From assembly GCA_963662285.2 (NCBI GenBank), contig CAXXMV010000008.1, positions 448,001-512,000 on the forward strand: a stretch of 64,000 nucleotides of DNA. Direction: 5' to 3'. The stretch is from a bacterium (GTDB taxonomy: Bacteria > Hinthialibacterota > Hinthialibacteria > Hinthialibacterales > Hinthialibacteraceae). Positions 20,470-52,830 of the stretch are shown in pieces (positions within the stretch are counted from its first letter, which is position 1; each line of letters begins with the position of its first letter). Position numbers and translations under genes: made by a program. Below the pieces are notes generated by a model. The model had not been told where the DNA came from and did no database searches. It saw only the letters and a list, made by a program, of their open reading frames with translations.

Positions 20470-21384
20470 ATGAAAAGTTGGAAATTTATCTTATCTCTAG
20501 CATTATGCATTATAGCAGCCCCTGCTTTTTCGATTGAATTGCAGCAGGGAGTCAATGGTTACGAAGGCACAGCAGATACCCATATCGTATCCTGGGATGG
20601 AAATCAGAACCAGTTAATCCGTTTGGCAGATGGATCAAATGGCGGTAATGGCAGCGGTACGGCCACAACCGGCGGCGATCCGCAGAATGCTGGCGGCCAT
20701 AATTTCCTTGAAGAAGGCGACTATGGAGATCCTGCTCCTTTGTATGAAGACAGCAAGTGCATCCTGATCAAGTTTGATCTGACCAACATTTCTGGTAATG
20801 TTTCAAGCGCCAAAATCGGACTGTATTACTGGTATGAACGCAGTACTGGCAGCGACGCTACTGAATTAAGCGGCACCAAAAAAGCAGCTCATGCGCTTTA
20901 TGTAAATCGCATCTTGAAGGATTGGGCTGAAGGCGATACGAATACAGGCGTTGACGGATCAGACGCTCCTGATAACAGCGGTCTTGTATCATGGAACTCA
21001 ACTGGTTATGAACTATGGCAGGCGATGGGTGTTGAAGGCCCGGAAGATATCGCTCCGACCGAAAGCACAACCCAATTTGATCCAGCCGTTGGTGGATGGA
21101 CCTGGTTTGACGTAACTGAAAGCGTAAAGTTCTGGTTAGCGAATCCAGACAAGAACTTTGGAGTAAAGATTGGCCAGGAAGAATATCCTGTGAATGCCAA
21201 AGCGCCGGATCTTACATTACCTGATGGAACTGTAGTTTATTCCGCAGGACCGACGGATACCCCAACTGGTTTCCAAGCTGGCGCTCATGACTTTGTTTCC
21301 AGCGAAAACTCTATGGTCGATTTACGACCGAAGTTAGTTATTGAAGGCGCCTCAAACGCCATCGATTGGGAACTGATGAAATAA
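20470..21384 (+). CDS. Secreted DNRLRE/CBM96-like domain protein with C-terminal WELM tail
   Basis: Signal peptide; LQQGVNGYEGTADT, LIKFDL, W.EG, FDVT..V..W...P..NFG, SSE.....RPKLVI; ends SNAIDWELMK. Confidence 0.75.
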   Translation: MKSWKFILSLALCIIAAPAFSIELQQGVNGYEGTADTHIVSWDGNQNQLIRLADGSNGGNGSGTATTGGDPQNAGGHNFLEEGDYGDPAPLYEDSKCILIKFDLTNISGNVSSAKIGLYYWYERSTGSDATELSGTKKAAHALYVNRILKDWAEGDTNTGVDGSDAPDNSGLVSWNSTGYELWQAMGVEGPEDIAPTESTTQFDPAVGGWTWFDVTESVKFWLANPDKNFGVKIGQEEYPVNAKAPDLTLPDGTVVYSAGPTDTPTGFQAGAHDFVSSENSMVDLRPKLVIEGASNAIDWELMK

Positions 21385-21408
21385 GCCATTCTCTTTAATG
21401 TTATAATC

Positions 21409-21444
21409 AAAAAGCCTGGGATGGATATATCCCAGGCTTTTTTT
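21409..21444 (+). terminator. Rho-independent terminator
   Basis: AAAGCCTGGGAT...ATCCCAGGCTTTTTTT. Confidence 0.8.
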
Positions 21445-21656
21445 ATTACTTCTCAGCAATAATTTATGAAAAAAAAACTAAAACGCCCCTAATCTATTCC
21501 AACATTGAGAAAGAATTTAAGAGGAAAACAAAACCAAAGATTCCAAAACGTATACAGTTTTATCAATAGATATAGTTATAAAAGGCATTATTCAATCCCA
21601 AATCTATTTTTTATATAAAAAGGCGTAAAAAGATGAGTATTTTCCTCCCCCATCCA

Positions 21657-21686
21657 TTGACCTAAGATTCGATTGTATTAGATAAT
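21657..21686 (+). promoter_or_regulatory. Putative sigma70 promoter for the 21816 gene
   Basis: TTGACC-N18-GATAAT. Confidence 0.35.
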
Positions 21687-21815
21687 AGGAAACATTACAT
21701 GCGGAACTCGTCTTATACCCGGTTAGGCAACATAAATTTATTCTATAGGGTAATTTGAGTATCCGCGCCAATAATGGATTATCTTAATCCATTAAATAGA
21801 TAGGGGAGATAACAT

Positions 21816-23198
21816 ATGAAAAAAGGATTTAAAGTATTCGGGATTCTGGCTTGCATGATACTGCTAGTTGGATCAGGGGCGATGGCGCAAGTAGGCGTCT
21901 TCGAAAACACGGTAACGCTGGATGCCGCAAATGATACTACTGCCGTTCCCGGCAGTATTACATTGGATGGCGGAACGTACACGATCCAGGGTAACGGAGC
22001 AGACATCTGGGGAACAGGCGATGAAGCTTTCTTCGCTTACACAGAACTAGCTGGTTCCAACACCATAACTGCCAAAGTCAAATGGATTCAGGCTAAAGGC
22101 GATGCAGCAGGTGGAAGCGACTGGGCTAAAATAGGCGTCATGGTTCGTGATGCTGCTGAAGATCCTGCATCAGCGCATTATTGGATCGAATTGCGTTGCG
22201 GCGCTGGCGATCCAGCCCTAGGCGACCAAACAGACGCTCAGTGGCGTCCCACAGCCGGATCATCATCCAGCAATGTTGAAGTTTTGCAAACTGATGGTTC
22301 TAAACTTGCTTCTCCTGATGGCGTATGGCTTCGCGTAACCCGTAATGCAGCAACCAACGAGATGACATCCGAATTTTCGATGGATGGAAAGAATTGGAAT
22401 TTTGGCGACACTCAGACAATTGAAATGAGTGAAACAGCAGCCTATGGTTTGATCATTACATCTCACACCAATGATGATCAGATCGTTATCGCTGAAGCCA
22501 GTGATGTTGCTATCACACAAAGCAATGTAGGCGTCTTCGATCATACCGTAACACTGGATGCCGAAAATAGTACTACTGCCGAAATTGGCAGTATCTCATT
22601 GATTGGCGACACATACACAATCCAGGGTAACGGAGCAGACATCTGGGGCACAGGCGATGAAGCGTTCTTCGCTTACACTGAACTGGCTGGCTCCAACACT
22701 ATCAGCGCTAAAGTCAAATGGATTCAGACTAAAGGCGATGCAGCCGGTGGAAGCGACTGGGCTAAGATTGGCGTTATGGTCCGTGATACTGCAACAGATC
22801 CTGGCTCAACACATTATTGGATCGAAATGCGCGGCGGCGCCGGCGATCCAGCTACTGGCGACCAGACAGATGCTCAGTGGCGTGATGTAGCTGACGCCGA
22901 TTCCGGTAATGTTGAAATATTACAAGCCGACGGTTCTAAACTTGCTGCGGCTGATGGCGTATGGCTTCGCGTAACCCGTAATGCAGAAAACAACGAACTC
23001 ACTTCCGAATATTCCATGGATGGAGCAGATTGGATTTTTGCTAACTCCAGAACTATCGAAATGAGTGAAACAGTTGCGTATGGTTTGATCATTACCTCTC
23101 ACACCAATGATGATCAGATCGTTATTGCTGAAGCTACTGATGTTTCTTTAGAAGAAGCTGTTATTTCTTCAACGGATAACTGGGAACTGTTCCGGTAA
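21816..23198 (+). CDS. Secreted protein with two tandem beta-sandwich (ConA-like/DUF1349-like) domains and WELF tail
   Basis: Signal peptide; two ~212-aa copies with GADIWGTGDE, WAKIGVMVRD, WLRVTR; ends SSTDNWELFR. Confidence 0.75.
   Translation: MKKGFKVFGILACMILLVGSGAMAQVGVFENTVTLDAANDTTAVPGSITLDGGTYTIQGNGADIWGTGDEAFFAYTELAGSNTITAKVKWIQAKGDAAGGSDWAKIGVMVRDAAEDPASAHYWIELRCGAGDPALGDQTDAQWRPTAGSSSSNVEVLQTDGSKLASPDGVWLRVTRNAATNEMTSEFSMDGKNWNFGDTQTIEMSETAAYGLIITSHTNDDQIVIAEASDVAITQSNVGVFDHTVTLDAENSTTAEIGSISLIGDTYTIQGNGADIWGTGDEAFFAYTELAGSNTISAKVKWIQTKGDAAGGSDWAKIGVMVRDTATDPGSTHYWIEMRGGAGDPATGDQTDAQWRDVADADSGNVEILQADGSKLAAADGVWLRVTRNAENNELTSEYSMDGADWIFANSRTIEMSETVAYGLIITSHTNDDQIVIAEATDVSLEEAVISSTDNWELFR
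21891..23145 (+). repeat. Intragenic tandem duplication, period 636 bp
   Basis: GTAGGCGTCTTCGA at 21891 and 22527; long near-identical DNA blocks. Confidence 0.9.
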
Positions 23199-23232
23199 TC
23201 TAAGCAATAGCGTATTTCTTAATAGCATCACC

Positions 23233-23262
23233 ACGGCCCGGATTCTTCCGGGCCGTTTTTTT
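23233..23262 (+). terminator. Rho-independent terminator
   Basis: ACGGCCCGGA-ttct-TCCGGGCCGT-TTTTTT. Confidence 0.85.
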
Positions 23263-23400
23263 ATTTTGGATAGATGTTTTTGAGAGTATTTAGGACACTT
23301 AGGTCTTTGATTTTTTCCCCTCACCCTAGCCCTCTCCCGGCGGGCTGATCCCCGTACACAAATCAAAAGAGGAAAATGAAACGGGGAGCATAATAGAATG

Positions 23401-23723
23401 GGGAGCATCGGCTTCTAGCCGGTGCGTCAAATAGAATAGAATGAGCCCCATTACGCATAATCATTTCCATGGAAATAGGGGGATGAAAAATGAATAACCG
23501 ATTTGTGTTGTGAAGCCGGATCACGTGCACATACTCCTTACGCTATTAGAAATTCCAAACCTTGGATATCATTCGATCACAACAATACTTCATAGCATTA
23601 AAAGTAATTCATCAATAAAAGCAAACTGGTTAGGAAGGGATTGGTTGAAATTGTGGAAAAGTTTCCTTTTTTGTGTGAAGAGAACCGACGGGATTGGCGT
23701 ACCGGCTAGAAGCCGATGCTCCC
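23401..23723 (+). pseudogene. Decayed REP-associated tyrosine transposase (RAYT/IS200-like) fragment between 30-bp inverted repeats
   Basis: ORF remnant KPDHVHILL...ILHSIKSNS (HUH motif); GGGAGCATCGGCTTCTAGCCGGT at 23401 and inverted copy ending 23723. Confidence 0.65.
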
Positions 23724-23879: not shown

Positions 23880-26800
23880 TCATCTGGTTTCGCGGATGAC
23901 GCGGAAGCCTACATTATATACCGGCAGGAATTTATGGTAATAGACTTTATGATTTGAACTGGCAAATTTGGGACGGTCATACCATGAGCCGCCTTTGACA
24001 ACTTTTCTGTCATTCATTTCATTAGCCGTTGAGCTTGTCCATTCCGCCGCATTGCCATGCATATCATAGAGTCCCCAGGGATTGGGCTGATATGTTCCAA
24101 CTGGAGCAGATACGCGATATTGATCGTTATAGGAGCTTATGGCAGGTCTCCATGTGGGGATAGCGCCTGAGGGCAACCCCCAGCCGAAGGTATCTACTTT
24201 ATGGAATGATGCATCAGCTAGATTGGCGTATTTGGAGAAATCCACTGTATGACCGCCATACCACATGGCGGAGTCCGATCCCGCACGGCATGCATATTCC
24301 CACTGGGCTTCATCGGGTAGAGTGAAATGCTCGCCCGTTTTTTCCGACAACCAGCGGCAAAAAGCCATAGCATCATTCCATGATACGCGCACTACCGGCT
24401 GACGAGTGGTGTTGAGAGGATAGCCGCGCTCCTCAATGCTGAATTGTAAAAAGTCTCCATGTTCCAAGCGGCTGTCATGGGATGGATCGAACAACTGATA
24501 TTGCTGGTTGGTTATTTCATAAGCGCTTATCCAGTAGGGATCATTAATTCTCACGGTTGGTTTATCAGACGCCGATGCAAATTCACCTGAGGGAATCAGC
24601 ATCATCGGCATATCAATACCTTCACCCAGATCAATAGCGTCCTGATAATCGCCTAGTGAAGCCTGACGCGCCCTGGCTTGTTGCTGGTTGAATGACCAAG
24701 CATTAGTAGACTGCTTTATTGCAGGAATTCCTCTGGGATGCGGCGGCGTTGAATTATCCATTATCAGCGCAGGTTGGTTAATTTCTTCAGGGTCTTCGTC
24801 AATATTGGCGTATTGCTTTAACATGGCCAGCCGACGGTCGCGCTGATGAAACACATTCTGGTCGCCTACGATTTCCCGCCATGTTCCATGAGCTGGAGTG
24901 TTCAAGTCGATCCAGGTAATCAAACGATCCCAGGCTTCTGCGCTTAAATCGACGTCATGATGACCTTGGCTTAACATCTGAACCAATTGAGTGCTGTCCG
25001 CATGAAACTCTCCGGGAGGCAATAAATGTAGATCGCTCTCAATGGTCGGCGCACGAACATAGCGCCGTAATGCTATGTAAGACGGAGGGAATTTTGTTCC
25101 ATTATTGTAGGTAGCATTACCCCCTTTAGGGTGAACCGATGGGAGAGAGCGAAAATCAGGCGTCTCCATTTCCGGAAGCGAGGTTCCATCATGGCATCTA
25201 ATGCAATATTTATCCAAAACAGGCTGAACCTCTCTGATAAAGGAGAAACCGCGGGTGGGGCCGTACCAAGGCTGTATCTGTGAAGGCTGGCGCTGAAGAG
25301 CCAGGGCTGACATAACTGGAGGAGCGGTGTTTTGTTGTTCATGGCAACCGACGCAGGTCAGAATTTCTCCCGGCATGGCGGTCATCCAGCTGCGCATCAG
25401 TTGCAAGGCTTTGCCTTCTTCATCCAAAGGTTGCAGTGAAATAGGCGTATTGGCGGGGACCGAAAAATAGGCCGAGCCATCCTCTTCCACAGGAACTTCA
25501 CCGATGACTCTTTTTATATCCCAGGGACCATCCAGACCTACGCGGCTTATCTGGCCGCCCATGCCATGATAAGCGAAATGATAGGTGAACAGACGTAGTT
25601 TCTTGACTGTACCTTGCGGGACGCCTTTAAGACCGCCGCCTTTATATATATCTGTAAAATAGACCAGCGCATCCTTACGTTCAGGTTGTACTTTACTTGG
25701 AATAACTGGTGGAGCCGGTATTTTCTTAAACGGGATAGGCTCCAGCAAGGCGTAATCTTCAAGTTCCTTGATCAGCGTCATATTATCAAAGACATCGACC
25801 AGATAAATCCCCCAATTGGCGCCGGGCGATGGTTTACATGAAGTGATAATGTACTTGTCGCTCAGCGGCCAGGGGTGCAGAAATTTTGGCCAGCTTTTTT
25901 TGATAAGATCGTCTTGAATTATCGGCGCCACTTTCACGCCGCGACCGGGAATGCGCTGAATCACGCCATCCGCTTCACGGCGGCCTTTAGCGGGATCGAA
26001 GAGCACCAATTCACCCATGCGCGGTTCGTCGTGATGACCTCCGATTACGGCGACGAATTTGGTTGGATGATTGGGAACCGGCCTGGCGTAGAACATTGAG
26101 TTAGGCCAATAGGAGTTGCTGCCGTAATACTCCATTTGGCTGGTTCCATCAGGATTCATGTGGAAAAGTATGCGCGAGACGAAATGGGGGATGTCAGAAT
26201 ATTCCCAGCGTAAATATAGAATCCGGCCATTATTCAATACAGTCGGACACCAGTCATGATCCTGTTCAAAAGTCAAACGCCTGATATTATTGGTCTGCAA
26301 ATCAAACAGATACATGTTAGATACATGAGCCGATCCCGATACGCATGGCACCCCGATGAATGGCGCGGTTGAGGTGAAGATAATATTTCCGTCAGGTAAG
26401 TAACATGCGTCATAATTATCCACATCGGGCTGCTCTATCAGTGATAATTGCCGGATGTCCCGTCCATCAGCGCTCAATTCAAAAATCTGCCAGCGTCCAT
26501 TGTCGCCCGGCATAGAGAAAAGCATACGGTCCGCATCAAAATCCAGATCGATATCTCCCACGAAGCGGTCTTTTTCCGGCTTGAATAATGTGGTTAGTTG
26601 TCCTGATGGAGATAATGGGGAAAGAAGAACGATTTGATTATGGTAGCCCTGTTGGGGGATGCTGGAATTACTTTCCCAGTTCATGGGTAATCCCAGTTTT
26701 TCGCCGTCCCGCTTAATCATGAGTAATTGCTCGAAATCAATCAACGGATTAGCGAGCAGCGCCTGACGCTGAAATTGGAGGATAGCATCCGCCTGTTGAA

Positions 26801-27068
26801 GTGAGTTAGTTTTCTTTTGCTCAAGAGCCTTTATTATGAATATTCTATTGGATTTATATTCATTCAACTGTTCCAGGTATGATGCGGGATATTGATTGGG
26901 ATAAGTCTCTATAAGGTCTTCAATAGCCAACCGCAGGGATGCGAAATTGATCTGACCGACTTGTGTTATCTTCTCCTGGTATATATCTGCTCCATCACAT
27001 TGATAAGGAAATATCAAGCATGATATCAGCCAGGAACCACTTAACAATAAAAGCGTATATTTTTTCAT
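23880..27068 (-). CDS. Secreted HzsA-like beta-propeller/c-type heme protein fused to an FGE-sulfatase (SUMF1) domain
   Basis: YLPDGNIIFTS, GRILYLRWEY, VPVEEDGSAYF.VPA, CVGCH and CIRCH, FGE motifs LPDEAQWEYACRAG, NPWGLYDMHGN, GFRV. Confidence 0.8.
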   Translation of the reverse strand: MKKYTLLLLSGSWLISCLIFPYQCDGADIYQEKITQVGQINFASLRLAIEDLIETYPNQYPASYLEQLNEYKSNRIFIIKALEQKKTNSLQQADAILQFQRQALLANPLIDFEQLLMIKRDGEKLGLPMNWESNSSIPQQGYHNQIVLLSPLSPSGQLTTLFKPEKDRFVGDIDLDFDADRMLFSMPGDNGRWQIFELSADGRDIRQLSLIEQPDVDNYDACYLPDGNIIFTSTAPFIGVPCVSGSAHVSNMYLFDLQTNNIRRLTFEQDHDWCPTVLNNGRILYLRWEYSDIPHFVSRILFHMNPDGTSQMEYYGSNSYWPNSMFYARPVPNHPTKFVAVIGGHHDEPRMGELVLFDPAKGRREADGVIQRIPGRGVKVAPIIQDDLIKKSWPKFLHPWPLSDKYIITSCKPSPGANWGIYLVDVFDNMTLIKELEDYALLEPIPFKKIPAPPVIPSKVQPERKDALVYFTDIYKGGGLKGVPQGTVKKLRLFTYHFAYHGMGGQISRVGLDGPWDIKRVIGEVPVEEDGSAYFSVPANTPISLQPLDEEGKALQLMRSWMTAMPGEILTCVGCHEQQNTAPPVMSALALQRQPSQIQPWYGPTRGFSFIREVQPVLDKYCIRCHDGTSLPEMETPDFRSLPSVHPKGGNATYNNGTKFPPSYIALRRYVRAPTIESDLHLLPPGEFHADSTQLVQMLSQGHHDVDLSAEAWDRLITWIDLNTPAHGTWREIVGDQNVFHQRDRRLAMLKQYANIDEDPEEINQPALIMDNSTPPHPRGIPAIKQSTNAWSFNQQQARARQASLGDYQDAIDLGEGIDMPMMLIPSGEFASASDKPTVRINDPYWISAYEITNQQYQLFDPSHDSRLEHGDFLQFSIEERGYPLNTTRQPVVRVSWNDAMAFCRWLSEKTGEHFTLPDEAQWEYACRAGSDSAMWYGGHTVDFSKYANLADASFHKVDTFGWGLPSGAIPTWRPAISSYNDQYRVSAPVGTYQPNPWGLYDMHGNAAEWTSSTANEMNDRKVVKGGSWYDRPKFASSNHKVYYHKFLPVYNVGFRVIRETR

Positions 27069-27192
27069 TTGATGATTTGCATCCAATTTTTAGTTATTTA
27101 CATGAAATCAGTAATTTATTATAGAGGGTATTGAGTATCATTAGAGATAAAGAGAGAGGAAAAGTCAAGCAGACAATTAAGTAATAAAGTAT

Positions 27193-28189: not shown

Positions 28190-29011
28190 TTAATACAAAC
28201 TCCAGTGTGAAACATAAGAGGCGTGCACACAATAGTCATCAGTAAGTGTAACCGAGTATACATCAACCTCTGCGCCAATGCGGATTATAAATTCACTCAT
28301 TCCGATGTGGTTATCCGTCTTTCCCCAATCATAGGTATAACCGAGACGGGTCCAGGGGTATCCATTTTCTCCATACATAGATGCTTTTGTATCATTAAAC
28401 CATTGCTTGTGCTCTTCACTCACCCCAGCGGGGAAATCCAGAGTGGCTGCGTTATTAGTTATATCAGGATCGGGAGTAGGTCGAAACAGGTCTTCAGGAC
28501 TTACCCAGAATTCCACAAAACGGGTTTTACCATTATCAGGCGGCAAGCCAAGCAGTTGTTCGAGACGTAAATCCAAATCATTGGCTGGTATTTGGTTTTG
28601 CTGGCAGAACTTTTGTAATTCCGGCACGGCGGTGACCCAAATATCACGCGTGGTTTCGTAGATACCCATAGTTGAGTTACCATTGGCGCCATTGGTTCGC
28701 GCTTGGATATACTGCGTCATGCGGATGGTTTTGCCAACCATACCGTCATAACCATCCCAGGAAGTCCAGGTAGTCATCAGGACTTTTTGATCGCCTGATT
28801 CACTGCTCCAGACAAGATTGTTGTTGTCTTCTGTAATAGAGATCAGATCATAATAGATTTCATCTGCTTCAGCGATTTCTGCATCATTAACCGCCGCCTG
28901 GAAGGCTTGTTGAAGTTCCTCTTCTGAAGCCGCATATAAAAAAGGTGCGACCAATAGAGAAAGACAGGCGAGAAGCAGGAAGATAGCAAAAAAGCGATTG
29001 AATTTTTTCAT
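28190..29011 (-). CDS. Secreted hypothetical protein with C-terminal WSLY tail
   Basis: Signal peptide from ATG 29011; RLEQLLGLPP, FRP.PDP, YPWTRLGYTYDW; ends SYVSHWSLY. Confidence 0.75.
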   Translation of the reverse strand: MKKFNRFFAIFLLLACLSLLVAPFLYAASEEELQQAFQAAVNDAEIAEADEIYYDLISITEDNNNLVWSSESGDQKVLMTTWTSWDGYDGMVGKTIRMTQYIQARTNGANGNSTMGIYETTRDIWVTAVPELQKFCQQNQIPANDLDLRLEQLLGLPPDNGKTRFVEFWVSPEDLFRPTPDPDITNNAATLDFPAGVSEEHKQWFNDTKASMYGENGYPWTRLGYTYDWGKTDNHIGMSEFIIRIGAEVDVYSVTLTDDYCVHASYVSHWSLY

Positions 29012-29205: not shown

Positions 29206-30582
29206 ATGCGTACAACAAGCCAGATGAATAAATGTTTAGCAAGAGTATGCGTCTTTATTTTAATGATGATTATGACCGGGATTAATTTTACTCCCGACTG
29301 CGCGGCCTCTCCAGAAAATGCCATGCAGAATTACCTGCAACGAGCGGAACCGGACTATTCGTGGACTCTCAAAGATACCAATGAACTCAAAGGGATGAAG
29401 ATTTACGATCTTCATCTAGTCTCGCAAAAGTGGCAGGGGATAGTATGGACCCATCAACTGCGCATTTTCATCCCCAAAGATTGCAAAGCAGGCTCAGCCC
29501 TTCTGTTTATCTCAGGAGGCAGCAACAAAAACGGCAAACCCAATTGGGATAAATGGAACGGGGAAAAACCCGGTCTTATAGCTCAAATGGCTTTTAAGAC
29601 TAATCGCCCGGTTATCGCGCTAAAGCAGGTTCCCAATCAACCGCTGTATGGTGAAAAGGTGGAAGACGACCTGATATCGCATACTTTCCTTAAATATTTT
29701 GAGACCAAAGATGAGACATGGCCGCTGCTGCTGCCCATGACCAAAAGCGCCGTACAGGCCATGACGGCGATGCAGGAATTTTGCTCTAAAGAAATCAACC
29801 TGCCAATCAAAGGCTTCGTGGTCGCTGGAGGCTCCAAACGGGGATGGACCACATGGATGACCGGATCCAACGACAAACGGGTTATCGGCATTGGTCCGAT
29901 GGTGATTGATACCCTGAAGATGAATAAGCAAATGGATTACCAGTTGGAATGTTGGGGCAAGTATAGTGAACAAGTGGATGATTATACTAAAAAAGGCATC
30001 CAGGAAAAAATGAAAACTCCTGAAGGCAAGGATTTATTGAAAATCGCCGATCCATATTCCTATATCAAACAACTCAAGATACCTAAGTTGATCTTCATCG
30101 GCACCAATGATCCTTATTGGCCGGTAGACGCCATCAAACATTACTACAACGACCTTGTCGGAGAGAGTTATATTCATTACGTACCCAACGTGGGTCATGA
30201 TTTAGGCGATGGAGAGCAAGCAGTGAGATCATTGGCCGCCTTCTTTGACATCTGCGCATCGGGCGCCCAACATCCTAAATTGAAATGGTCCATGACTCAG
30301 GAAAATGGCGCCGCAGTATTGAAAGTTGATGCTGGCGGCGACGCCAAAGAAGCCAAACTGTGGACTGCGGCATCGAACGACCGGGATTTCCGTGATGATA
30401 AGTGGAATAATGAACCATGCAAAGACCGTGATGGATCGCAATTTACTTCCAGTATTATATTGCCCGATGAAGGATATAAAGCCCTCTATCTAGAAGTGAT
30501 CTACCCCAGCCCGGTAGAAAAGACATACTCAAAAACCAGCCGCATATTCGTGCTTGATCCGAAAGGCGTGGTTAGCGAATAA
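29206..30582 (+). CDS. PqaA-family (PhoPQ-activated pathogenicity-related) alpha/beta hydrolase
   Basis: SQKWQG..W.H, QVPNQPL, PMTKSA, GGSKRGWTTW, DPYSY, GTNDPYW, VPNVGH. Confidence 0.88.
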   Translation: MRTTSQMNKCLARVCVFILMMIMTGINFTPDCAASPENAMQNYLQRAEPDYSWTLKDTNELKGMKIYDLHLVSQKWQGIVWTHQLRIFIPKDCKAGSALLFISGGSNKNGKPNWDKWNGEKPGLIAQMAFKTNRPVIALKQVPNQPLYGEKVEDDLISHTFLKYFETKDETWPLLLPMTKSAVQAMTAMQEFCSKEINLPIKGFVVAGGSKRGWTTWMTGSNDKRVIGIGPMVIDTLKMNKQMDYQLECWGKYSEQVDDYTKKGIQEKMKTPEGKDLLKIADPYSYIKQLKIPKLIFIGTNDPYWPVDAIKHYYNDLVGESYIHYVPNVGHDLGDGEQAVRSLAAFFDICASGAQHPKLKWSMTQENGAAVLKVDAGGDAKEAKLWTAASNDRDFRDDKWNNEPCKDRDGSQFTSSIILPDEGYKALYLEVIYPSPVEKTYSKTSRIFVLDPKGVVSE

Positions 30583-30639: not shown

Positions 30640-30773
30640 CGCCATGGGACTTTATGGGCTACAACGATCCGCGGCTTATATCCCACCATCTCTGATACAT
30701 ATTTGGTTTAATGAGTGATTTGGCGTAATTAAATTTGTGATGTATAATTGTAGTAGACTGGAGGTGATTGGTT

Positions 30774-31328
30774 ATGGTTAATGATGACGCAATAAACAAA
30801 TATCGTGAAACGATTAAGTATATCGCCTACCGCTCGATTGATGACCGGAACTTTGGCCGGACTAAACTGAATAAGATTTTATTCTATTGTGATTTCCTGG
30901 CTTACCGTAATCTAGGGAAATCAATTACAGATGACGGGTATATCAAACATAAGCATGGCCCCGTTCCCACCCATGTCAAAAAGATAGCCAATGCATTGAT
31001 TGATGATATAGAGATCAAAGAGATCAATACTCCGACAGGCAACTATATTCAGAAAAGACTGGTTACGTTGACGGAATGCAATTTGGATGTGTTCACTCCG
31101 CAAGAAATTTCTCTGATTGATTCGGTCATCGAAGTGTTGTGGGATGAAACCGCCAAGGCGGTCAGTGAACTGTCACATCAGTTCATCGGATGGCAAATGA
31201 TGGATATAGGGGAAAATATCCCTTATGAAACAGTGTTAATTCGTGAATCAAAGGTAACCGATGACGACTTGGCCTATGGGGCGGAATTGGCAAAGGAACT
31301 GGACGAATGGCCCGTGGTCTCTCCGTAG
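30774..31328 (+). CDS. Panacea-domain (DUF4065/SocA-like) antitoxin
   Basis: GRTKLNKILFYCDF...GKSIT...Y....HGPVP, ELSH...W....GENIPYE; RBS GGAGGT. Confidence 0.85.
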   Translation: MVNDDAINKYRETIKYIAYRSIDDRNFGRTKLNKILFYCDFLAYRNLGKSITDDGYIKHKHGPVPTHVKKIANALIDDIEIKEINTPTGNYIQKRLVTLTECNLDVFTPQEISLIDSVIEVLWDETAKAVSELSHQFIGWQMMDIGENIPYETVLIRESKVTDDDLAYGAELAKELDEWPVVSP

Positions 31329-31334
31329 TACGAC

Positions 31335-31592
31335 ATGTACGGATTCACCCAACGGTTGGAAGAATTCCGGCATATCCGGCGTCTTGATGAATATATTCGG
31401 GCTTACGAATGGCAGTTATCCAACGATCCCACTGTAGGCGCCCGTCAAACATTAGGTGATCGCATTATCTGGACATATTCCTACTATCTTGATCCTACAG
31501 AAATGAAAGAAATTGTGGTTTATTACACTTACGATGAAACAAATCTGTACATGCTGGATATACGGTTAAAGCCAGCGCGTGATAATGATTGA
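31335..31592 (+). CDS. Putative RelE/ParE-fold toxin
   Basis: Directly follows the Panacea gene; L..DP..G and VVYYTYDE..LYMLDI pattern; start uncertain. Confidence 0.55.
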   Translation: MYGFTQRLEEFRHIRRLDEYIRAYEWQLSNDPTVGARQTLGDRIIWTYSYYLDPTEMKEIVVYYTYDETNLYMLDIRLKPARDND

Positions 31593-31932: not shown

Positions 31933-33162
31933 ATGAAAAAAATAATAGTTAACGTCATCATAGGATTAATTTTGCTATTTGCAGGATCAGTGTCAGAATC
32001 AGATCAAGCAACTGGCGCGTCGAAATACGCTTATGATCCTAATGTTCCAGAGGAACTGCGCATACGTGATGGGTTGCCTAATTTTTTCGCCAAACTCGCT
32101 GCTGGCGGTCCGGTGCGCATCGCCTATCTGGGCGGAAGCATCACTGCGGCTAACGGATGGCGTCCAAAGAGTTTTGCGTGGTTCAAATCACAGTATCCAA
32201 AAGTTGAACTAATCCAGATCAACGCCGCTATATCAGGCACGGGGTCGGATTATGGGGCCTGCCGCATTGCTTCGGATGTTTTAGCCCATCAACCTGACCT
32301 TATCTTTATGGAACACCGGGTGAATGGCGGCGCGGGATTTGAAGCCAAGTCGGTGGAAGGCATCATCCGTCAGATTTGGCGCAGTAATCCACACACTGAT
32401 ATTTGTCTGGTGTACACCATATCACATAGTATGCTCAAGACTATCCAGTCGGGCAAGACGCCCGGCTTCGGCGCTATCATGGAGAAAGCGGCCAATGTTT
32501 ACGGCATCCCATCAATCGATCTCGGCGTAGAAATCGCCAAACGCGAAAAAGCGGGTGAACTCATTTTTAAGGGCAAAGACCCTGTAGATGGGAAACTGGT
32601 ATTTTCGGCGGATGGAGTTCATCCCGGAGGCGCTGGACATGATGTATACACAGAAGTCATTGCACGTTCAATGCTTAAAATGAAAGCAGAAGACAAAACG
32701 CTGGAACATTCGCTTCCCAAACCGCTGGATTCTCTCTGTTGGGAAACGGCTACGCTGCTACCGATCACTGATGCTAAACTAAGTCCTGGTTGGAGCAGCG
32801 TTGACGCCAAAACAGATGCTGTTTACCGCGACGATTTCGGTCGTACGCAGGGCATGCTGCATGAGGCGAAAAAATGCGGCCATGCAGGCGAGACCATCAC
32901 GGTCAGATGGAATGGTCAAACAATCGGTTTCAGTGATATCCCCTATGGCGAAGGTATGGAAGTTGAAGTGACTATCGATGATGCAACAAAGCCGATTGTG
33001 ATCAAACGGGTGCAGAGAGAAAAAAGAAAATACGCCCGGTTCTTTTATTTACCTGAGCAGTCATCCGGAGAACACACAGCGGTGTTGCGGATCAAGCAAT
33101 TACCTGAAGGTTTGACCTACTATGCCGGACAGATACTGATCGTCGGCGAAGTGCTTCCATGA
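31933..33162 (+). CDS. Secreted SGNH/GDSL-family hydrolase
   Basis: AYLGGSIT, NAAISGTGS, EHRVN, DGVHP. Confidence 0.85.
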   Translation: MKKIIVNVIIGLILLFAGSVSESDQATGASKYAYDPNVPEELRIRDGLPNFFAKLAAGGPVRIAYLGGSITAANGWRPKSFAWFKSQYPKVELIQINAAISGTGSDYGACRIASDVLAHQPDLIFMEHRVNGGAGFEAKSVEGIIRQIWRSNPHTDICLVYTISHSMLKTIQSGKTPGFGAIMEKAANVYGIPSIDLGVEIAKREKAGELIFKGKDPVDGKLVFSADGVHPGGAGHDVYTEVIARSMLKMKAEDKTLEHSLPKPLDSLCWETATLLPITDAKLSPGWSSVDAKTDAVYRDDFGRTQGMLHEAKKCGHAGETITVRWNGQTIGFSDIPYGEGMEVEVTIDDATKPIVIKRVQREKRKYARFFYLPEQSSGEHTAVLRIKQLPEGLTYYAGQILIVGEVLP

Positions 33163-46939: not shown

Positions 46940-48208
46940 ATGCATTTAAGAATAACAATCATCGCCCTATTTCTCCTATTATGCAGCCTGATTATCTCTT
47001 CCGCTGACGCCTGCCGTTATAACGTGCGCGACGTGGGATTTGTAGAATTTGGTGAGGCGCCATACCATTTATATGTTTTTATAGATAATCAAACGCCCGA
47101 TGATATCACGGAAACCTTTCGTCAAATAGTTTACGCCGCTCTGCTGGAAAGCAATATCGAATTGACTATTGTCAATATTGATGAAGAGGCCGATCACCCG
47201 GCGTTATCTTATATCAAGCAAAAACCGATGCCTGCTTTACCCTTCGTCATTCTAACCTCAGAGAAAAACAGCCCTTTACCCATTGCAATTAAATCCGGGG
47301 AAAAGAGTTTTAAGGATAATTTATGGCAAACCATTGATCAGGTTGTCTCTTCTCCGCTGAGGGAAAGAATTGTGGATGACGCCATAGAACATTACGGAGT
47401 CCTGCTTTTGTTTGAAGGTGTGGATAAAAAGAACAACCAACAATCCCGGCAAATCGCCAATACAATTATTGAGCAAGTAGATAAGAATCTGATTTCGCTG
47501 CCCAAAGAAATTAAGAAGCCGCCAGTTCTACACATTGTAAAGAGAGAAGATTTTGCTAAAGAACAAGTATTAATGTGGGCTTTGGGAGTGGAGACCGATT
47601 ACCAGGAACCACAGGCTGCCGTTGTTTACGGAAGAGCGCGGATGATTGGTTCATTGCTCAAAGGCGAAGAGATTACCAGTTTTGCATTGGGGCATATAGT
47701 AACCACAATAGGAGAATCCTGTGAATGCGGTTTGGAAAGATCGTGGATGATGGGAACAATAATCCCATTCCGCTGGACTAATAGTTATAGGGAGAAAATG
47801 GCCGAACATCTGGGATTTGATCCTGATAATCCTTTCGTCAAGACAGAGATCAGCCAGATATTATCAACCAGTGCTTCCGGTCGCGTCCAAACCGGTCAAG
47901 GAGGCAATTCGACGGATTTATTGATGGGCTACAGCGAAATATCACTGGATTATAATACGTCCGATGTTGAGCAGGATCAGATGGAAAATGCTTCGCCAAT
48001 CACTGATATTACACCAGACATCAATACCCGGACAATCGAAGATCAGGAAACAACGCCTGATATAAAAACAGTAGTAACATCTGAAGCAATGGAGCCTATC
48101 CCTTCTCATAAATCGGTAACCGTATCATTATTAATAAGTTTTATTGTTTTATTTGTTGTGGTAAGTTTATTTGGGGGAATAATCCTACTGATGAGATTAA
48201 GAAGATAA
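46940..48208 (+). CDS. Secreted, C-terminally membrane-anchored hypothetical protein
   Basis: Signal peptide then CRYNVRDVGF; YGRAR, CECG; C-terminal TM plus basic residues. Confidence 0.65.
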   Translation: MHLRITIIALFLLLCSLIISSADACRYNVRDVGFVEFGEAPYHLYVFIDNQTPDDITETFRQIVYAALLESNIELTIVNIDEEADHPALSYIKQKPMPALPFVILTSEKNSPLPIAIKSGEKSFKDNLWQTIDQVVSSPLRERIVDDAIEHYGVLLLFEGVDKKNNQQSRQIANTIIEQVDKNLISLPKEIKKPPVLHIVKREDFAKEQVLMWALGVETDYQEPQAAVVYGRARMIGSLLKGEEITSFALGHIVTTIGESCECGLERSWMMGTIIPFRWTNSYREKMAEHLGFDPDNPFVKTEISQILSTSASGRVQTGQGGNSTDLLMGYSEISLDYNTSDVEQDQMENASPITDITPDINTRTIEDQETTPDIKTVVTSEAMEPIPSHKSVTVSLLISFIVLFVVVSLFGGIILLMRLRR

Positions 48209-48338: not shown

Positions 48339-49487
48339 ATGATTACGATTCACCACCTAATAGTTAAAGAGATTATTCATCGCAAATTTAATTTCTCTCT
48401 GAGCTTGTTGGCGGTCACCGTAGCAGTCGGGCTGGCGGTAGCCTTCTTCACCACAGGCGAAGCATCCAAACGGGAAACCATCCGCTTAATGCGCGACATG
48501 GGATACAACCTGCGCATTATCGCCAAAGATACCAATATGGACCTGTTCTATGCAACAGGCTATTCCGATAAAACTTTTCCCGTTGAGTACGTCGAAAAAT
48601 TCTCTGCGCAGAAAGGTTTGCTTTACGCTCACCTACTCGCCACCTTGCAAAAATCAATCGAATGGCGCGGCCATCGGGCTATCCTAACCGGCATCGCTCC
48701 TGAAATATCTCCGATCGGCAAGCAAAAACCATCCATGATCTTCAAAATCGCACCGGGAACGGTTTACATAGGCTATGAACTCGCACAGGCTTTAGCCATT
48801 AAACCGGGTGACGCAGTTGAGATAATGGGTAAAGCATTCACCATCGAAAATTGCTTGCACGAAGCGGGCAGCGAAGACGACATCCGTATTCATGCCAATC
48901 TTAGTGATGTCCAGAGTTTACTGCAACTCGACGGTCTGATAAATGAAATCCAGGCGTTGAACTGTCACTGCGTTCTGGAGGGCGTTGAACCGCTAACCTT
49001 ATTACGCGAGCAATTGGCCAAAGTACTACCCGATACCCACGTAATCCAGAAACGCGCTATCGCTGATGCGCGAACCAACCAACGCGTATTAATGGAGAAC
49101 TATTTCGCTTTGATATTGCCCTTTATCCTGATTGTATGCGCCATTTGGATTGGAACGCTGGCGTTGTTAAATACCCACGACAGAAAATCCGAAATCGGCA
49201 TTCTCAGAGCGCTGGGATATGGCAGTTGGAAAATTGCCTTCTTATTTCTGGAAAAAGCAATACTGGTCGGCCTGATAGGATCTGTTCTAGGATTCATTTT
49301 TGGAACCGGCATCGCCCTTATATATGGAGCTGATGTTTTCACGGTTACTTTCGAAAAAATTCAGCCAATCTACAGCCTTCTGATTATCTCCATTATCGCC
49401 GCGCCGGTATTTACGGCCGTATCAAGTTTCATCCCAGCCATGATTGCAGCCACCCATGATCCGGCTGAGTCGCTGCGTGAGGAATAA
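48339..49487 (+). CDS. ABC transporter permease, FtsX/MacB-like
   Basis: RKSEIGILRALG, PA..AA..DPAESLRE. Confidence 0.85.
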   Translation: MITIHHLIVKEIIHRKFNFSLSLLAVTVAVGLAVAFFTTGEASKRETIRLMRDMGYNLRIIAKDTNMDLFYATGYSDKTFPVEYVEKFSAQKGLLYAHLLATLQKSIEWRGHRAILTGIAPEISPIGKQKPSMIFKIAPGTVYIGYELAQALAIKPGDAVEIMGKAFTIENCLHEAGSEDDIRIHANLSDVQSLLQLDGLINEIQALNCHCVLEGVEPLTLLREQLAKVLPDTHVIQKRAIADARTNQRVLMENYFALILPFILIVCAIWIGTLALLNTHDRKSEIGILRALGYGSWKIAFLFLEKAILVGLIGSVLGFIFGTGIALIYGADVFTVTFEKIQPIYSLLIISIIAAPVFTAVSSFIPAMIAATHDPAESLREE

Positions 49488-49491
49488 TGCC

Positions 49492-50157
49492 ATGACCATG
49501 ATTCACATAGAAAAGTTAACCAAAAGTTATCCCACCAAAAACGGCGAAGTCAAAGCCATAGATAATATTTGTCTTGATGTCGAGGAACGTGAATTCATAA
49601 TAATCCGGGGTCCCAGTGGAAGTGGAAAGACGTCTCTGCTGCTATCTCTGGGGGGCATGCTGCATCCCTCTTCTGGCCGGATCATAATAAATGATGAAGA
49701 TATCTACCAGATGTCTAATAAAGACCGTGGGCGCTTTAGAGCGCAAAAAATTGGCTTTGTTTTCCAGATGTTTCACCTTATACCATATTTAAATATCCTG
49801 GAAAACGTCGCGCTTGCCGCGCATCATAGAATTTCGACCAATATCAGGCGTGATGCAATCAGCATTCTGGAAGGTTTAGGACTTTCGCACCGCATCAATC
49901 ATAAGCCATCAGAATTAAGCGCCGGAGAAAGACAACGCACCGCTATTGCCCGCGCCATGCTCAACCAGCCCAAAATAATCTTAGCCGACGAACCAACCGG
50001 CAACCTTGACCCTGACAGCGCCAGCGAGGTCATGAATTATCTGGTGACATTCCATCGACGCGGTGGAACGGTGTTTATGGTTACGCATGGTGTAGAAGCG
50101 GATCAATTCGCTGACCGGGTCGTCCTCTTGAGAGATGGCATGCTGCAAGAAGCATGA
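49492..50157 (+). CDS. ABC transporter ATP-binding protein, LolD/MacB-like
   Basis: GPSGSGKT, IGFVFQ, LSAGERQR, ADEPTGNLD, VTH. Confidence 0.92.
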   Translation: MTMIHIEKLTKSYPTKNGEVKAIDNICLDVEEREFIIIRGPSGSGKTSLLLSLGGMLHPSSGRIIINDEDIYQMSNKDRGRFRAQKIGFVFQMFHLIPYLNILENVALAAHHRISTNIRRDAISILEGLGLSHRINHKPSELSAGERQRTAIARAMLNQPKIILADEPTGNLDPDSASEVMNYLVTFHRRGGTVFMVTHGVEADQFADRVVLLRDGMLQEA

Positions 50158-50420
50158 TCTAGAGTAATTTTCATAATAATGTTCTGATTGGCGATTCGAA
50201 AAAGCCAGAAAAGATTGGCTTTTTCGAAAACCAAAGGTAATAATAAACGAACATAATTTTGATAATCGCTCTAATACAGACCTCCATCGATTTAATTTCA
50301 AAAGGGGATTAAAATAAATCCTGCATATCAGCGCACATTGTCAATCTACATTATGAAGAATCGCCTGACGCACAAAATCTACTTATCCCTTTTCTTACGA
50401 GAAGGCTAGGATGAAGATAA

Positions 50421-50840
50421 ATGCCTCATTTTGATAAACATTTTACTCTTGCTGAAGCATTGGCCTTACTTCCCCGGATACGTGAAATCTTTTTTAGGAT
50501 TCAAAAGTTATTCGATGAAGCCCGGGAAGGTCACACGATTATACTGAAAAATCCCGAAGAACTGACTTCCGGTCGAACCAACGGCGATCAAAAAAAATTC
50601 AAACCCCACCGCAACCGCGAAGAAATAACAAATGAAATAAACGAATTGGTGATAGAAATTGCTGATCAAGGCATTGTTATTCAGGACGTATATCGCGGTT
50701 TGATTGATTTCCCTGCTTACGTCAAAGGAGAAGAAGTTTTCCTGTGCTACGAACTAAATGATGGTGATTCAATCAACTATTTCCATAGTCTTGATACGGG
50801 TTACGCAGGACGCCTACCGCTGCCAGAAGATACTGTTTAG
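50421..50840 (+). CDS. DUF2203-family protein
   Basis: FTLAEALALLP, GLIDFPA...GEEVFLC, H..D.GYAGR.PL. Confidence 0.85.
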   Translation: MPHFDKHFTLAEALALLPRIREIFFRIQKLFDEAREGHTIILKNPEELTSGRTNGDQKKFKPHRNREEITNEINELVIEIADQGIVIQDVYRGLIDFPAYVKGEEVFLCYELNDGDSINYFHSLDTGYAGRLPLPEDTV

Positions 50841-50866
50841 CTTAAGAAATCTCTTCCAAAAGTAAA

Positions 50867-50976
50867 GTAGTCCAAAATCCCGAAAAAATGGGATTTTGGA
50901 CTACTAATAAAGTCGTAGGATGGGACAAAGCAAGTAAAATTCAATCCATTAAACCACTATCGTAGCGTGTCCCATC
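50867..50976. repeat. Two GTAG-type palindromes between convergent genes
   Basis: GTAGTCCAAAATCCC...GGGATTTTGGACTAC and GTAGGATGGGACA...TGTCCCATC. Confidence 0.6.
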
Positions 50977-50991
50977 GTATACCAAACTCCC

Positions 50992-52830
50992 TTAATAGAG
51001 TTCCCATACGCTAACTGCAGTATTAACCTCAAGATCAGACAGCATATCAACCCCAGCGTTAATCCCGACCGGCCGGATCACGGCGTACCTGACCCTGCTG
51101 ATATGAATCGCGCCTAATTCAGAGAACGAGAAGCGAACAGCTGCTTGAGGACCTTGGTTGACTCCACTGAAATTGACGTCATTAACAATCCATACCGCCG
51201 TCTTCCATTCATCTGTTCCGGTAATGACTTGCCTGACTTCTTCCGGGACAAACTTGAACTGTAGAGTTCCAAATACATTGGATTGATACACTTGCGGTCC
51301 AAAATCTTCATCAATCAAAGCCGGATCATCATAATAATCCACTGCGATTTTCAAAACTGCGTTAGGTTGATCGGATGGTCCAAAATGTTCATTAATAATT
51401 GAGAAATTTATATGACTGTCAAACGGATCGCTGCCATCGCCTAAAGCTGGACGGATCGCGGAACGTTTATCACCCGCTGGACCAATATCATCTTCAACTA
51501 AATATTCCTGGTCGCCGCCGCTGGTTCCATAATCCAAACCAAAGTTTAAAGCAGGATCATCAATATTGAATTCCGCATAAATTTCGTATGGATCAGGATC
51601 AAATGGATAAGCATCGGGAATAGGATCGACATTCTCGTAGACTCCAGAACTGCGAACCATACCCACTCTTACGCGTGAGACATATACCGGACCGCCAAAA
51701 CTAAAACGGGCCGCTCCTTGAGGAGTAACATTTACGCCCTTTAATTTGACATCAGGAACATACCAAACAGCTTCGCGCCATAAACCGGTTCCTGCAAGAA
51801 CAGTTCGTTTTGCCTCCGAGAAGAAAGCCAAAGCATCGCCAGCTGTAACATAGACTTCCGGTCCAAAAATAGTTCCGGCAAGCGCAGGATCATCATAATA
51901 CTCAGCAACAATCTTTACTTTCGAACTAGGTTGGCTGGTTGGTCCAAAATGTTCATCTAAAATCGCCCAGTTAACATAAATATCTTGCGTAGCATCAGAA
52001 CCATCATCAAAAGCCGGTCGTACAGCCTGGCGTTTATCGTCTGCAGGACCAATATCGCTGGACTCAATGGTTTCCTGGTCTCCACCAGTAACGCGATGTA
52101 GATCCAAGCCATTGATCACGCCATTATTGATATCCCATTCGGCCATAATGGCATAATCATCCGGATTAAACTCGACTACTTTAGTCGTATTAATATCTTC
52201 CGGTTCGCCGAATGCGCCTTCAGGACCAATAGCAATAGCGCGAATTATCAAGCCATTAGTTCCTCCTAAACGTATGGTGCCTCCATTTACTCCGCCGTAT
52301 GTGATAGTTCCTTGAGAATCGTCGTGCACGTTTCCAGCCCAGGCGCCGGAATTATCAACCCGGAAGAGACGCCATTCAAATTGGTCAGTCACAGATTCAA
52401 AATTGAATCCATCAACGTAATTCATATAATCGCCAGGCAGCGTACCCAGCAGGAAACCCATATTGTCACGCTTGGATTCAGCATTGGCGAAATACTGCAC
52501 CAGAACATCAATCACAGGCAAGTCAGGTAATAAAAAATAAAGTTCATCAGCAATATTGAAATAGTTGGCAACCGACTTTTTAGCGTCTTTACCGGCGATT
52601 GAAATGTCTTCCGTTACCTGATCGCCACCAGTCAGGATAAGAATCGTTTCAGAAAATAGATTCCCTTGACCTGAAGGAATAGCTCCATAAAGAGCATCAT
52701 CCGCGCACCAATAATGCACATCCGCATCGAAATCAGTAGTTGGCGGCCACTGATCGATATCTTGTGAATATGCTGGCGTATAACCAATTAGTAATCCAAC
52801 AACCATGAAACAGACAAAAATTTTATTCAT
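50992..52830 (-). CDS. Secreted acidic protein with three internal repeats and WELY tail
   Basis: RBS AAGGAGG, signal peptide; repeated [TS]GGDQ...IGP..DKR.A.RPA..DGSD, YYDDPAL; ends TAVSVWELY. Confidence 0.75.
   Translation of the reverse strand: MNKIFVCFMVVGLLIGYTPAYSQDIDQWPPTTDFDADVHYWCADDALYGAIPSGQGNLFSETILILTGGDQVTEDISIAGKDAKKSVANYFNIADELYFLLPDLPVIDVLVQYFANAESKRDNMGFLLGTLPGDYMNYVDGFNFESVTDQFEWRLFRVDNSGAWAGNVHDDSQGTITYGGVNGGTIRLGGTNGLIIRAIAIGPEGAFGEPEDINTTKVVEFNPDDYAIMAEWDINNGVINGLDLHRVTGGDQETIESSDIGPADDKRQAVRPAFDDGSDATQDIYVNWAILDEHFGPTSQPSSKVKIVAEYYDDPALAGTIFGPEVYVTAGDALAFFSEAKRTVLAGTGLWREAVWYVPDVKLKGVNVTPQGAARFSFGGPVYVSRVRVGMVRSSGVYENVDPIPDAYPFDPDPYEIYAEFNIDDPALNFGLDYGTSGGDQEYLVEDDIGPAGDKRSAIRPALGDGSDPFDSHINFSIINEHFGPSDQPNAVLKIAVDYYDDPALIDEDFGPQVYQSNVFGTLQFKFVPEEVRQVITGTDEWKTAVWIVNDVNFSGVNQGPQAAVRFSFSELGAIHISRVRYAVIRPVGINAGVDMLSDLEVNTAVSVWELY

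Follow-up and report, generated by a model that had tools for sequence, protein, structure and literature searches.

A short C-terminal W-x-L tail on unrelated Sec signal-peptide proteins of the OLB16/Hinthialibacterota lineage as a candidate sorting tag

Tail-bearing proteins of the window

The window analyzed here—a 64-kb stretch of the 1.64-Mb contig CAXXMV010000008.1 (positions 448,001 to 512,000) from a bacterium of the phylum Candidatus (Ca.) Hinthialibacterota—encodes four proteins that share a short tail at their extreme C terminus, built around a Trp-x-Leu core. They are named proteins 1 to 4 in the following (Table 1). A first-pass annotation had described these four tails as sitting on nonhomologous proteins with Sec signal peptides, and this is borne out by the translations, by BLASTP of the four proteins without their tails (no pair at E < 1), and by the Pfam and NCBIfam assignments. 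As read from the translations, each N terminus opens with a basic n-region, which leads into a hydrophobic core and then an A-x-A-like site for cleavage. Protein 1 contains a DNRLRE/CBM96-like domain, which scores 47.6 bits with NCBIfam DNRLRE_dom (cut-off 34) and 24.5 bits with Pfam CBM96 (under the cut-off of 26). Protein 2 is made of two DUF1349-like repeats (Pfam DUF1349) of the concanavalin A (ConA)-like type. The first of these ends in IAEASDV and continues into the second, which ends in IAEATDV; the remaining 17 residues contain the tail. Protein 3 has no named family in Pfam or NCBIfam. Protein 4 has a jelly-roll–like core that is internally duplicated, and neither database holds a family for it. 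In both proteins with internal repeats, 2 and 4, the first repeat copy has no tail. The genes of proteins 1 and 2 are neighbors and probably form separate transcription units because each has a GC-rich hairpin with a T run, resembling an intrinsic terminator, directly 3' of it.

The tail follows the consensus [TS]-x-[VIA]-x-x-W-[ESD]-[LIVM]-[YFH], with zero or one further residue. Tails were aligned on the Trp as position 0, which is W in all of them. Position −5 is T or S in 34/40 members of the protein-4 family and 15/15 of the protein-3 family; position −3 is V, I, or A in 40/40 and 14/15, respectively. Position +1 is mostly E, S, or D, position +2 is L (less often I, V, or M), and position +3 is Y (less often H or F). 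The pattern first proposed had an S or T five residues before the Trp, which holds, but it was too short since V, I, or A at position −3 is also conserved. Most tails end in Y, F, or H, and in the OLB16 lineage most have nothing after the aromatic residue. OLB16, once placed in Omnitrophota and including the metagenome-assembled genome (MAG) SURF_12, is the phylum Ca. Hinthialibacterota according to PMC9324843. The conserved T/S-x-V element, five residues upstream of the Trp, may speculatively be a cleavage or attachment site.

Table 1. Positions of tail genes and other features in the window and, with an L prefix, in loci fetched from related genomes (aa, amino acids)
Feature	Position	Strand	Description
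Tail protein 1	20470-21384	+	304 aa; C terminus GASNAIDWELMK = SNAIDWELMK, encoded 21352-21381
Tail protein 2	21816-23198	+	460 aa; C terminus SSTDNWELFR, encoded 23166-23195
Tail protein 3	28190-29011	-	273 aa; C terminus SYVSHWSLY, encoded 28193-28219
Tail protein 4	50992-52830	-	612 aa; C terminus TAVSVWELY, encoded 50995-51021
Peptidase_C25 + CARDB protein	37880-43375	+	1831 aa, secreted; distant PorU relative; candidate processing enzyme
Hairpin 3' of gene 1	21385-21444		Intrinsic-terminator-like
Hairpin 3' of gene 2	23199-23258		Intrinsic-terminator-like
MacB/LolC-like permease + ATPase	48339-50157	+	About 1 kb from protein 4
Unnamed protein	46940-48208	+	422 aa; directly upstream of permease/ATPase
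Protein with dockerin-like end	1693-2553	-	286 aa, exported
Tail-less protein	16446-18164		Presumably exported
Tail-less two-domain protein	23880-27086	-	1068 aa, presumably exported
Tail-less protein	29206-30582		Presumably exported
Tail-less protein	31933-33162		Presumably exported
SocA/Panacea antitoxin-domain protein and following ORF (open reading frame)	30768-31592	+	186 aa, then 85 aa
Cytochrome c/beta-propeller protein	63016-63960	-	
Protein 2 homologue	L016:477-2132		Tail-ended
Protein 2 homologue	L013:3476-4477		Tail-ended
Four tail genes	L013:3476-17749		Within 15 kb; include protein-4 orthologue
Probable false tail match	L006:13352-14830		
S41 Ctp-like gene	L003:13561-15060	-	About 1.7 kb from protein-4 orthologue
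S41 Ctp-like gene	L005:13624-15108	-	About 1.7 kb from protein-4 orthologue
Near-threshold GC-type dockerin protein	L015:12104-14200		
Carriers of [FY][FY]R[LV]xx module	L018:9-4487; L018:6945-10214; L023:7756-10032; L024:3731-5182; L025:7720-9552; L026:7025-9718; L030:8082-9593; L031:5201-5728		

Position and spread of the tail

The homologues of protein 4 were taken from the best 120 of 373 significant matches. Each of the best 40 (50–86% identity; 486–795 aa, mostly 605–620) ends in W-x-[LIVF]-[YHFQR] plus at most one residue, with the 10 residues ahead of this motif varying. Likewise, when 36 orthologues are aligned, all of them share the tail Trp (W609), while the residues directly before it vary. 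The closest named relatives are MAG proteins labeled "Candidatus Omnitrophica/Omnitrophota bacterium" and "Candidatus Hinthialibacter antarcticus." Among the matches listed, none of the 80 lower-ranked homologues has the tail; two of them are truncated fragments with 60–76% identity, as in the close relatives. The distant homologues (37–43% identity) bear instead either a Cys-rich, dockerin-like end, found on Planctomycetota-labeled proteins, or an extension of about 70 residues ending in F[YF]RL... Where named, the labels of these distant homologues are Verrucomicrobia or Planctomycetes, with a few others.

The protein-3 family (best 120 of 1598 significant matches) shows the same boundary from another side. 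Its members generally end in ..T.DYC[KQR] or ..DDFWK, 10–12 residues before the point at which the tail ends. The closest 15 of the 120 matches listed, and no others, continue for 10–12 extra residues that end in S-x-[VA]-x-x-W-[SEA]-[LM]-[YF]. Members that lack the tail are labeled Hydrogenedentes, Deltaproteobacteria, Bacteroidota, Gammaproteobacteria, and Phycisphaerae.

For the DNRLRE family, a HMMER search with protein 1 against 1.84 billion cluster representatives gave 150 listed matches, 26 of which have a W-type tail and six a variant in which F replaces W. Among the matches listed, the tail is found on seven of the eight representatives closest to protein 1. The NCBIfam DNRLRE model stops 15–17 residues before the C terminus in the tail-bearing proteins P0252, P0300, and P0249. 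P0242 and P0253 have their tails 223 and 872 residues, respectively, past the DNRLRE domain, so that the tail tracks the end of the protein and not the domain. Other DNRLRE proteins carry different modules at this place: P0285 and P0295 have the C-terminal type A sorting domain (TIGR04183) belonging to type IX secretion systems (T9SS), and further homologues end in dockerin-like Cys-rich modules. The F-variants (P0249, P0250, P0251, P0255, P0259, and P0291; 322–1918 aa) share the C terminus ..AVPVEVS[RK]F[MY]L[YW], and five of the six have a signal peptide. When 111 DNRLRE domains are placed in a quick maximum-likelihood tree, the W-tail requires four changes compared with a mean of 12.4 after shuffling, and the F-variant tail forms one clade with 96% support. 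This grouping of tail types by clade fits a C-terminal module of its own in each lineage.

The tail is an appended module and not a part of the domains that it follows. An integral domain strand is ruled out by the earlier end of the protein-3 family and by the DNRLRE model, which terminates before the tail. The absence of the tail from distant homologues and the AlphaFold2 models point the same way. The bodies are predicted with good confidence (mean predicted local distance difference test [pLDDT] 89.1 for protein 4 and 83.6 for protein 3). The last strand of protein 4 spans residues 577–585 and is followed by coil over 586–612, the last residues averaging a pLDDT of 42; in protein 3, residues 261–273 are coil, with pLDDT < 50 for 267–273. 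The two models differ in fold: protein 3 is alpha/beta, with no Protein Data Bank (PDB) match at E <= 0.001 in the fold search, and protein 4 is a soluble multi-jelly-roll, for which Foldseek returned generic matches to jelly-rolls and carbohydrate-binding modules (CBMs) with a template-modeling score (TM-score) < 0.2.

The same models bear on the idea that the tail acts within its own protein, capping the edge of a beta-sandwich or serving as an oligomerization strand. Most cargoes are indeed beta-sandwich, lectin, or CBM-like, and a strand or small hairpin could arise from the alternating hydrophobic positions −3, 0, and +2. However, the modeled tail is low-confidence coil detached from the body in two unrelated folds, the cargo bodies are unrelated to each other, and the same families work without a tail in other lineages, which makes such an intramolecular or self-association role improbable.

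The spread of the tail beyond the window was followed in species-representative genomes scanned with the protein-4 alignment. This yielded 33 loci: 17 OLB16-like ones (ingroup), including SURF_12, and 16 outgroup loci, by title mostly from Verrucomicrobiota, plus Planctomycetota and a few others. Two patterns were used: a loose motif, W.[LIVMF][YFHWMQR] plus zero or one residue, and a strict motif, [ST].[VAI]..W.[LIVM][YFHM]. In the ingroup (window plus 17 loci; 350 kb), 27 of 259 genes have a loose-motif C terminus, compared with 0 of 188 in the outgroup (16 loci; 257 kb). The 27 consist of 17 members of the protein-4 (query) family, proteins 1 to 3 of the window, six new genes, and one probable false match in L006. 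Tail frequency differs between ingroup and outgroup also when the query family is excluded (Fisher p = 0.003). Among the nonquery genes of the 18 ingroup genome pieces, the tail favors signal-peptide-like genes as called heuristically, 9/102 against 1/140 of the others (Fisher p = 0.002), which is the enrichment that the first-pass annotation had suggested looking for.

The new cargoes comprise a protein with two Laminin_G_3 domains, a CBM9-like protein, one with a weak beta-helix match, and three without a family. Without their tails, the nine signal-peptide-positive cargoes sort into seven groups with no BLASTP similarity between them, and protein 4 adds an eighth; the sole relationship is that of protein 2 to its tail-ended homologues in L016 (30% identity) and L013. 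The cargo is thus mainly lectin, CBM, or ConA-like. In the window, the tail is missing from the PBP4B-like enzyme, the twin-arginine oxidoreductases, and the periplasmic binding proteins. The group of four tail genes in L013 and the adjacent window genes 1 and 2 hint that tail-bearing genes may be clustered.

The resemblance does not look accidental. All six frames of the window were searched for C-terminal W-x-L patterns in stop-to-stop ORFs of 40 aa or more (688 ORFs); this returned genes 1 to 4 and three loose matches in short ORFs of 53–62 aa, which are probably noncoding. None of the 42 other called window genes has the tail, which agrees with the earlier statement that cytoplasmic proteins here lack it. 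With 25 occurrences of the loose motif, at any position, in the 18,535 residues of the 46 window proteins, 0.10 C-terminal ones are expected as opposed to the four observed. For the strict motif, 14 of its 15 occurrences in the 259 ingroup proteins (99,081 residues) are C-terminal. The tail codons differ synonymously among the four genes (Leu as CTG, TTG, or CTC; position +1 encoded by GAA or AGT), and the DNA 3' of the stop codons is unrelated, hence the similarity sits at the protein level and a shared DNA repeat as the source of the tail is ruled out. The motif is admittedly short, with tails of just 9–10 residues. Given these counts, the conservation of the tail in 40/40 close protein-4 orthologues, its absence from all 188 outgroup genes, and the unshared codons and flanks, it is hardly conceivable that the tail reflects chance resemblance, composition, a DNA repeat, or an annotation artifact.

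Comparison with known C-terminal signals

The last 40 residues of proteins 1 to 4 have no Pfam or NCBIfam (June 2026) match at E <= 10, and no NCBIfam model matches the six new tail proteins. The tail thus belongs to no named family in these collections, as had been supposed from the sequence at first. The 112 signal-peptide-like C termini of the ingroup (last 130 aa) likewise give no match to T9SS, PEP-CTERM, or other CTERM models; judged by these models, no competing sorting system is seen among the ingroup C termini. No mention of such a tail was found in literature searched for the motif itself, C-terminal sorting signals, T9SS and PorU-like proteins, and OLB16. In the accessible text of PMC9324843 on the phylum, the words secretion, sorting, C-terminal, and T9SS are absent.

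The C-terminal domains of T9SS cargo are similar to the tail in several respects. They occupy the extreme C terminus of Sec-exported, often glycan-binding or degradative proteins from many unrelated families, they take the same slot on the DNRLRE proteins P0285 and P0295, and the window has a gene for a PorU-related C25 peptidase. However, TIGR04183 describes a folded domain of 72 positions, as opposed to a tail of 9–15 residues of predicted coil. Past the last secondary-structure element, 9–27 residues of coil are predicted and no folded C-terminal beta-sandwich. The T9SS models (TIGR04183, type B, and PF18962) match none of proteins 1 to 4 and none of the six new tail proteins, whereas the controls P0285 and P0295 match TIGR04183. 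Besides the PorU-like C25 protein, NCBIfam models reveal no T9SS component in the 64-kb window; its GldK/GldJ matches cover the FGE-sulfatase domain alone.

Signals of the LPXTG, PEP-CTERM, and GlyGly-CTERM type also combine a short C-terminal motif with signal-peptide proteins, restriction to lineages, and many unrelated cargo families. Sortase, exosortase, rhombosortase, and myxosortase-type signals are tripartite, in that a transmembrane helix and then a basic cluster come after the motif. The tail differs by having neither helix nor basic cluster and no NCBIfam CTERM match. In line with the first-pass view that no transmembrane segment is involved, the proteins end zero or one residue after the motif, with no hydrophobic segment.

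Dockerins resemble the tail in that Planctomycetota-labeled protein-4 homologues bear a dockerin-like module on the same core family. They are, however, folded Ca-binding modules with models of 57 (Pfam) and 67 (NCBIfam) positions, the tail being far shorter, and the tails match neither PF00404 nor NF041540 (GC-type dockerin). Two ingroup proteins come close to dockerins themselves: one in L015 scores 28.3 bits with NF041540, just below the cut-off of 29, and the exported 286-aa protein of the window with a dockerin-like end matches Pfam Dockerin_1 at E = 5e-4 and 20.6 bits (cut-off 22.9). Hence, a second kind of C-terminal module, dockerin-like, may coexist with the tail in the phylum.

The beta-signal of outer-membrane beta-barrels, an aromatic C-terminal residue that closes the last barrel strand, is ruled out: the modeled folds (proteins 3 and 4) are soluble, the tail is coil, and a polar residue (E/S/D) stands third from the end. 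A WxL domain, the cell-wall–binding domain of Gram-positive bacteria, shares a Trp-x-Leu signature near the C terminus of surface proteins. It is folded, exceeds 100 residues by far, and contains the WxL motif twice; Pfam finds it neither in proteins 1 to 4 nor in the tails.

Some other signals likewise consist of a few residues near the free C terminus that are read as a peptide, namely the four-residue motif of type 1 secretion system (T1SS) substrates, the peroxisomal targeting signal PTS1, and the extensions processed by Ctp/Prc proteases. T1SS cargo has no Sec signal peptide; PTS1 is eukaryotic, cytosolic, and read by a tetratricopeptide repeat (TPR) receptor; and Ctp/Prc substrates are individual proteins, not a broad class of the secretome. 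To our knowledge, none of the three shares the T/S-x-V-x-x-W-x-L-Y pattern. A type 1 secretion signal is ruled out by the Sec signal peptides of all four proteins.

A related proposal is that the tail serves as the secretion motif for an ABC-type exporter of periplasmic substrates, similar to MacB or LolC. Its acidic or polar residue followed by a hydrophobic end recalls the four-residue motif of some T1SS metalloproteases, and the MacB/LolC-like permease and ATPase are encoded close to protein 4. Yet T1SS substrates have no Sec signal peptide as proteins 1 to 4 do, the ABC genes are generic LolCDE/MacB relatives that score well below the cut-offs and adjoin just one of the four tail genes, and the fetched loci contain no such neighbor except a weak ATPase match in L010. 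We consider this proposal very improbable. The unnamed protein encoded directly upstream of the permease/ATPase starts with a signal peptide and carries a hydrophobic helix, then RLRR, at its C terminus.

More attention is due to the possibility that the tail is a C-terminal propeptide or PDZ-type protease ligand, recognized by an S41 protease (Ctp/Prc) or HtrA and either trimmed in the course of maturation or used as a quality-control or turnover tag, with no role in localization. W-[ES]-L-[YF], with its polar residue at −2 from the end and its hydrophobic or aromatic last residue, has the shape of a PDZ ligand, and the tail is flexible and exposed in the AlphaFold2 models. Ctp/Prc removes short C-terminal extensions from D1 of photosystem II and from FtsI, such that trimming of this kind is established for other proteins. 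In L003 and L005, an S41 Ctp-like gene lies near the protein-4 orthologue; the neighborhood is common to both, and therefore they count as one observation. On the other side, neither the window nor the other 15 ingroup loci have an S41 neighbor, many tails go on past the aromatic residue with an R, K, or E, which shifts the PDZ register, and a turnover tag does not account for the sorting and anchoring modules found at the same position in homologues. This explanation is therefore rather unlikely, though deserving consideration.

Taken class by class, the defining feature of T9SS domains, LPXTG/PEP-CTERM/GlyGly-CTERM signals, dockerins, beta-signals, and T1SS signals fails in each case, so that the tail is none of these. 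In the outgroup loci, proteins of varied lengths beyond the protein-4 homologues share a module of about 60 residues ending in [FY][FY]R[LV]xx (Table 1), which also ends protein-4 homologues in the outgroup taxa (mostly Verrucomicrobiota). P0048 and P0052, which bear this module, have no Pfam or NCBIfam name for it, and it may be another unnamed, lineage-specific C-terminal module.

Proposed role and candidate machinery

The tail is read here as a sorting tag because it occurs on unrelated cargoes, these are exported, it sits at the extreme C terminus, and it is restricted to clades, as was the case for sorting signals described earlier. On homologues elsewhere, its slot is filled by known surface-sorting modules, which suggests that it is probably an address tag not described before. 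Our proposal, which we consider as likely as not, is that Sec-exported proteins in OLB16/Hinthialibacterota and some other lineages carry it at the C terminus as a linear tag for addressing or anchoring. By analogy with the modules that it replaces, the tail could direct outer-membrane export, anchoring, or docking. The label "lineage-specific" given to it at first stands insofar as the tail is clade-restricted, as seen from the empty outgroup and the DNRLRE tree; it needs widening because W-x-L-Y-R and [RK]-F-[MYI]-L-[YW] variants occur on DNRLRE proteins of some other lineages.

The proposed route has three steps. First, the protein would cross the inner membrane through Sec and lose its signal peptide; the signal peptides are present, and export is presumed from them. 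Second, the lectin, CBM, or jelly-roll–like body would fold, with the last 10–25 residues staying a flexible extension, as AlphaFold2 predicts. Third, a periplasmic or outer-membrane receptor or processing enzyme would bind the W-x-L-aromatic end as a peptide, and the bound protein would be routed to, or held at, the cell surface. The tail would thereby play the part that, in other phyla, falls to the dockerin-like modules or T9SS C-terminal domains of homologues. A more far-reaching version is that the tag belongs to a new envelope-sorting pathway of diderm candidate phyla, present in OLB16 and at least two further lineages, whose post-Sec machinery is unlike sortases, exosortases, and T9SS and perhaps includes a PorU-type C25 peptidase that works on its own at T/S-x-V, either as a C-terminal signal peptidase or as a transpeptidase. 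This version is possible but doubtful.

The candidate for such a peptidase is the large Peptidase_C25/CARDB protein of the window. It scores 245 bits with Pfam Peptidase_C25 (cut-off 23), and the PDB contains one relative, PorU (6za2_A, E = 1.3e-9), whose GHGG and Cys align with those of the window protein. By sequence, it is a PorU-related C25 peptidase and not a curated PorU equivalog. No other gene of the window belongs to a family with a known role in processing C-terminal sorting signals; the C25 protein is a candidate only, linked to the tail by nothing beyond that role of its family. A predicted complex of C25 residues 230–1000 with the last 42 residues of protein 4 scored 0.00 in a run without controls and speaks neither for nor against binding. 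A tblastn search with all window proteins showed no conserved neighbor of the tail genes in the 33 loci.

Several points weigh against a sorting role. The analogy with the T9SS domain and dockerins is one of position and does not speak to function. Many presumably exported proteins of the window have no tail (four examples are given in Table 1), so that the tail is not a general requirement for export. The sample of the lineage amounts to about 350 kb, the gene caller was simple, and the signal-peptide test was a crude heuristic that also passes membrane proteins. No receptor or enzyme for the tail was identified in the 64-kb window or the 33 loci. The C25 protein reaches 232 bits with the NCBIfam model of the T9SS sortase PorU (NF033707), below the cut-off of 420, and its gene is not near the protein-4 orthologues in the 33 loci. 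Finally, one extra residue follows the aromatic in 2/4 window tails and 21/26 tails of the DNRLRE set (R in 14 of these 26), which makes recognition of the free carboxylate in a fixed register doubtful.

C-terminal sorting signals have in the past led to envelope machinery and to the prediction of surface proteomes, as with sortases, exosortases, rhombosortase, and T9SS. If the tail is indeed a sorting tag, a minimal linear tag on Sec-exported diderm proteins would be a design unlike the signals of these four systems, and the tail gives a handle for finding its receptor or enzyme. The protein-4 family and the DNRLRE domains also show that one core can take C-terminal modules that differ between phyla. 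Ca. H. antarcticus is described as a degrader of polysaccharides and other biopolymers (PMC9324843). The same paper names Ace Lake and states that OLB16 was originally obtained from an anammox reactor. For this phylum, which is known from metagenomes only and described as a polymer degrader in that source, the tag would mark the likely surface or extracellular glycan-binding proteome.

Three further loci of the window are worth recording. The tail-less two-domain protein of 1068 aa combines a middle domain of the hydrazine-synthase-alpha type with the FGE-sulfatase domain. The cytochrome c/beta-propeller protein near the end of the window is similar to hydrazine synthase beta/gamma, with scores far below the NCBIfam cut-offs. 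The gene for the SocA/Panacea antitoxin-domain protein is followed by an ORF without a family, and the two form a possible toxin–antitoxin pair.

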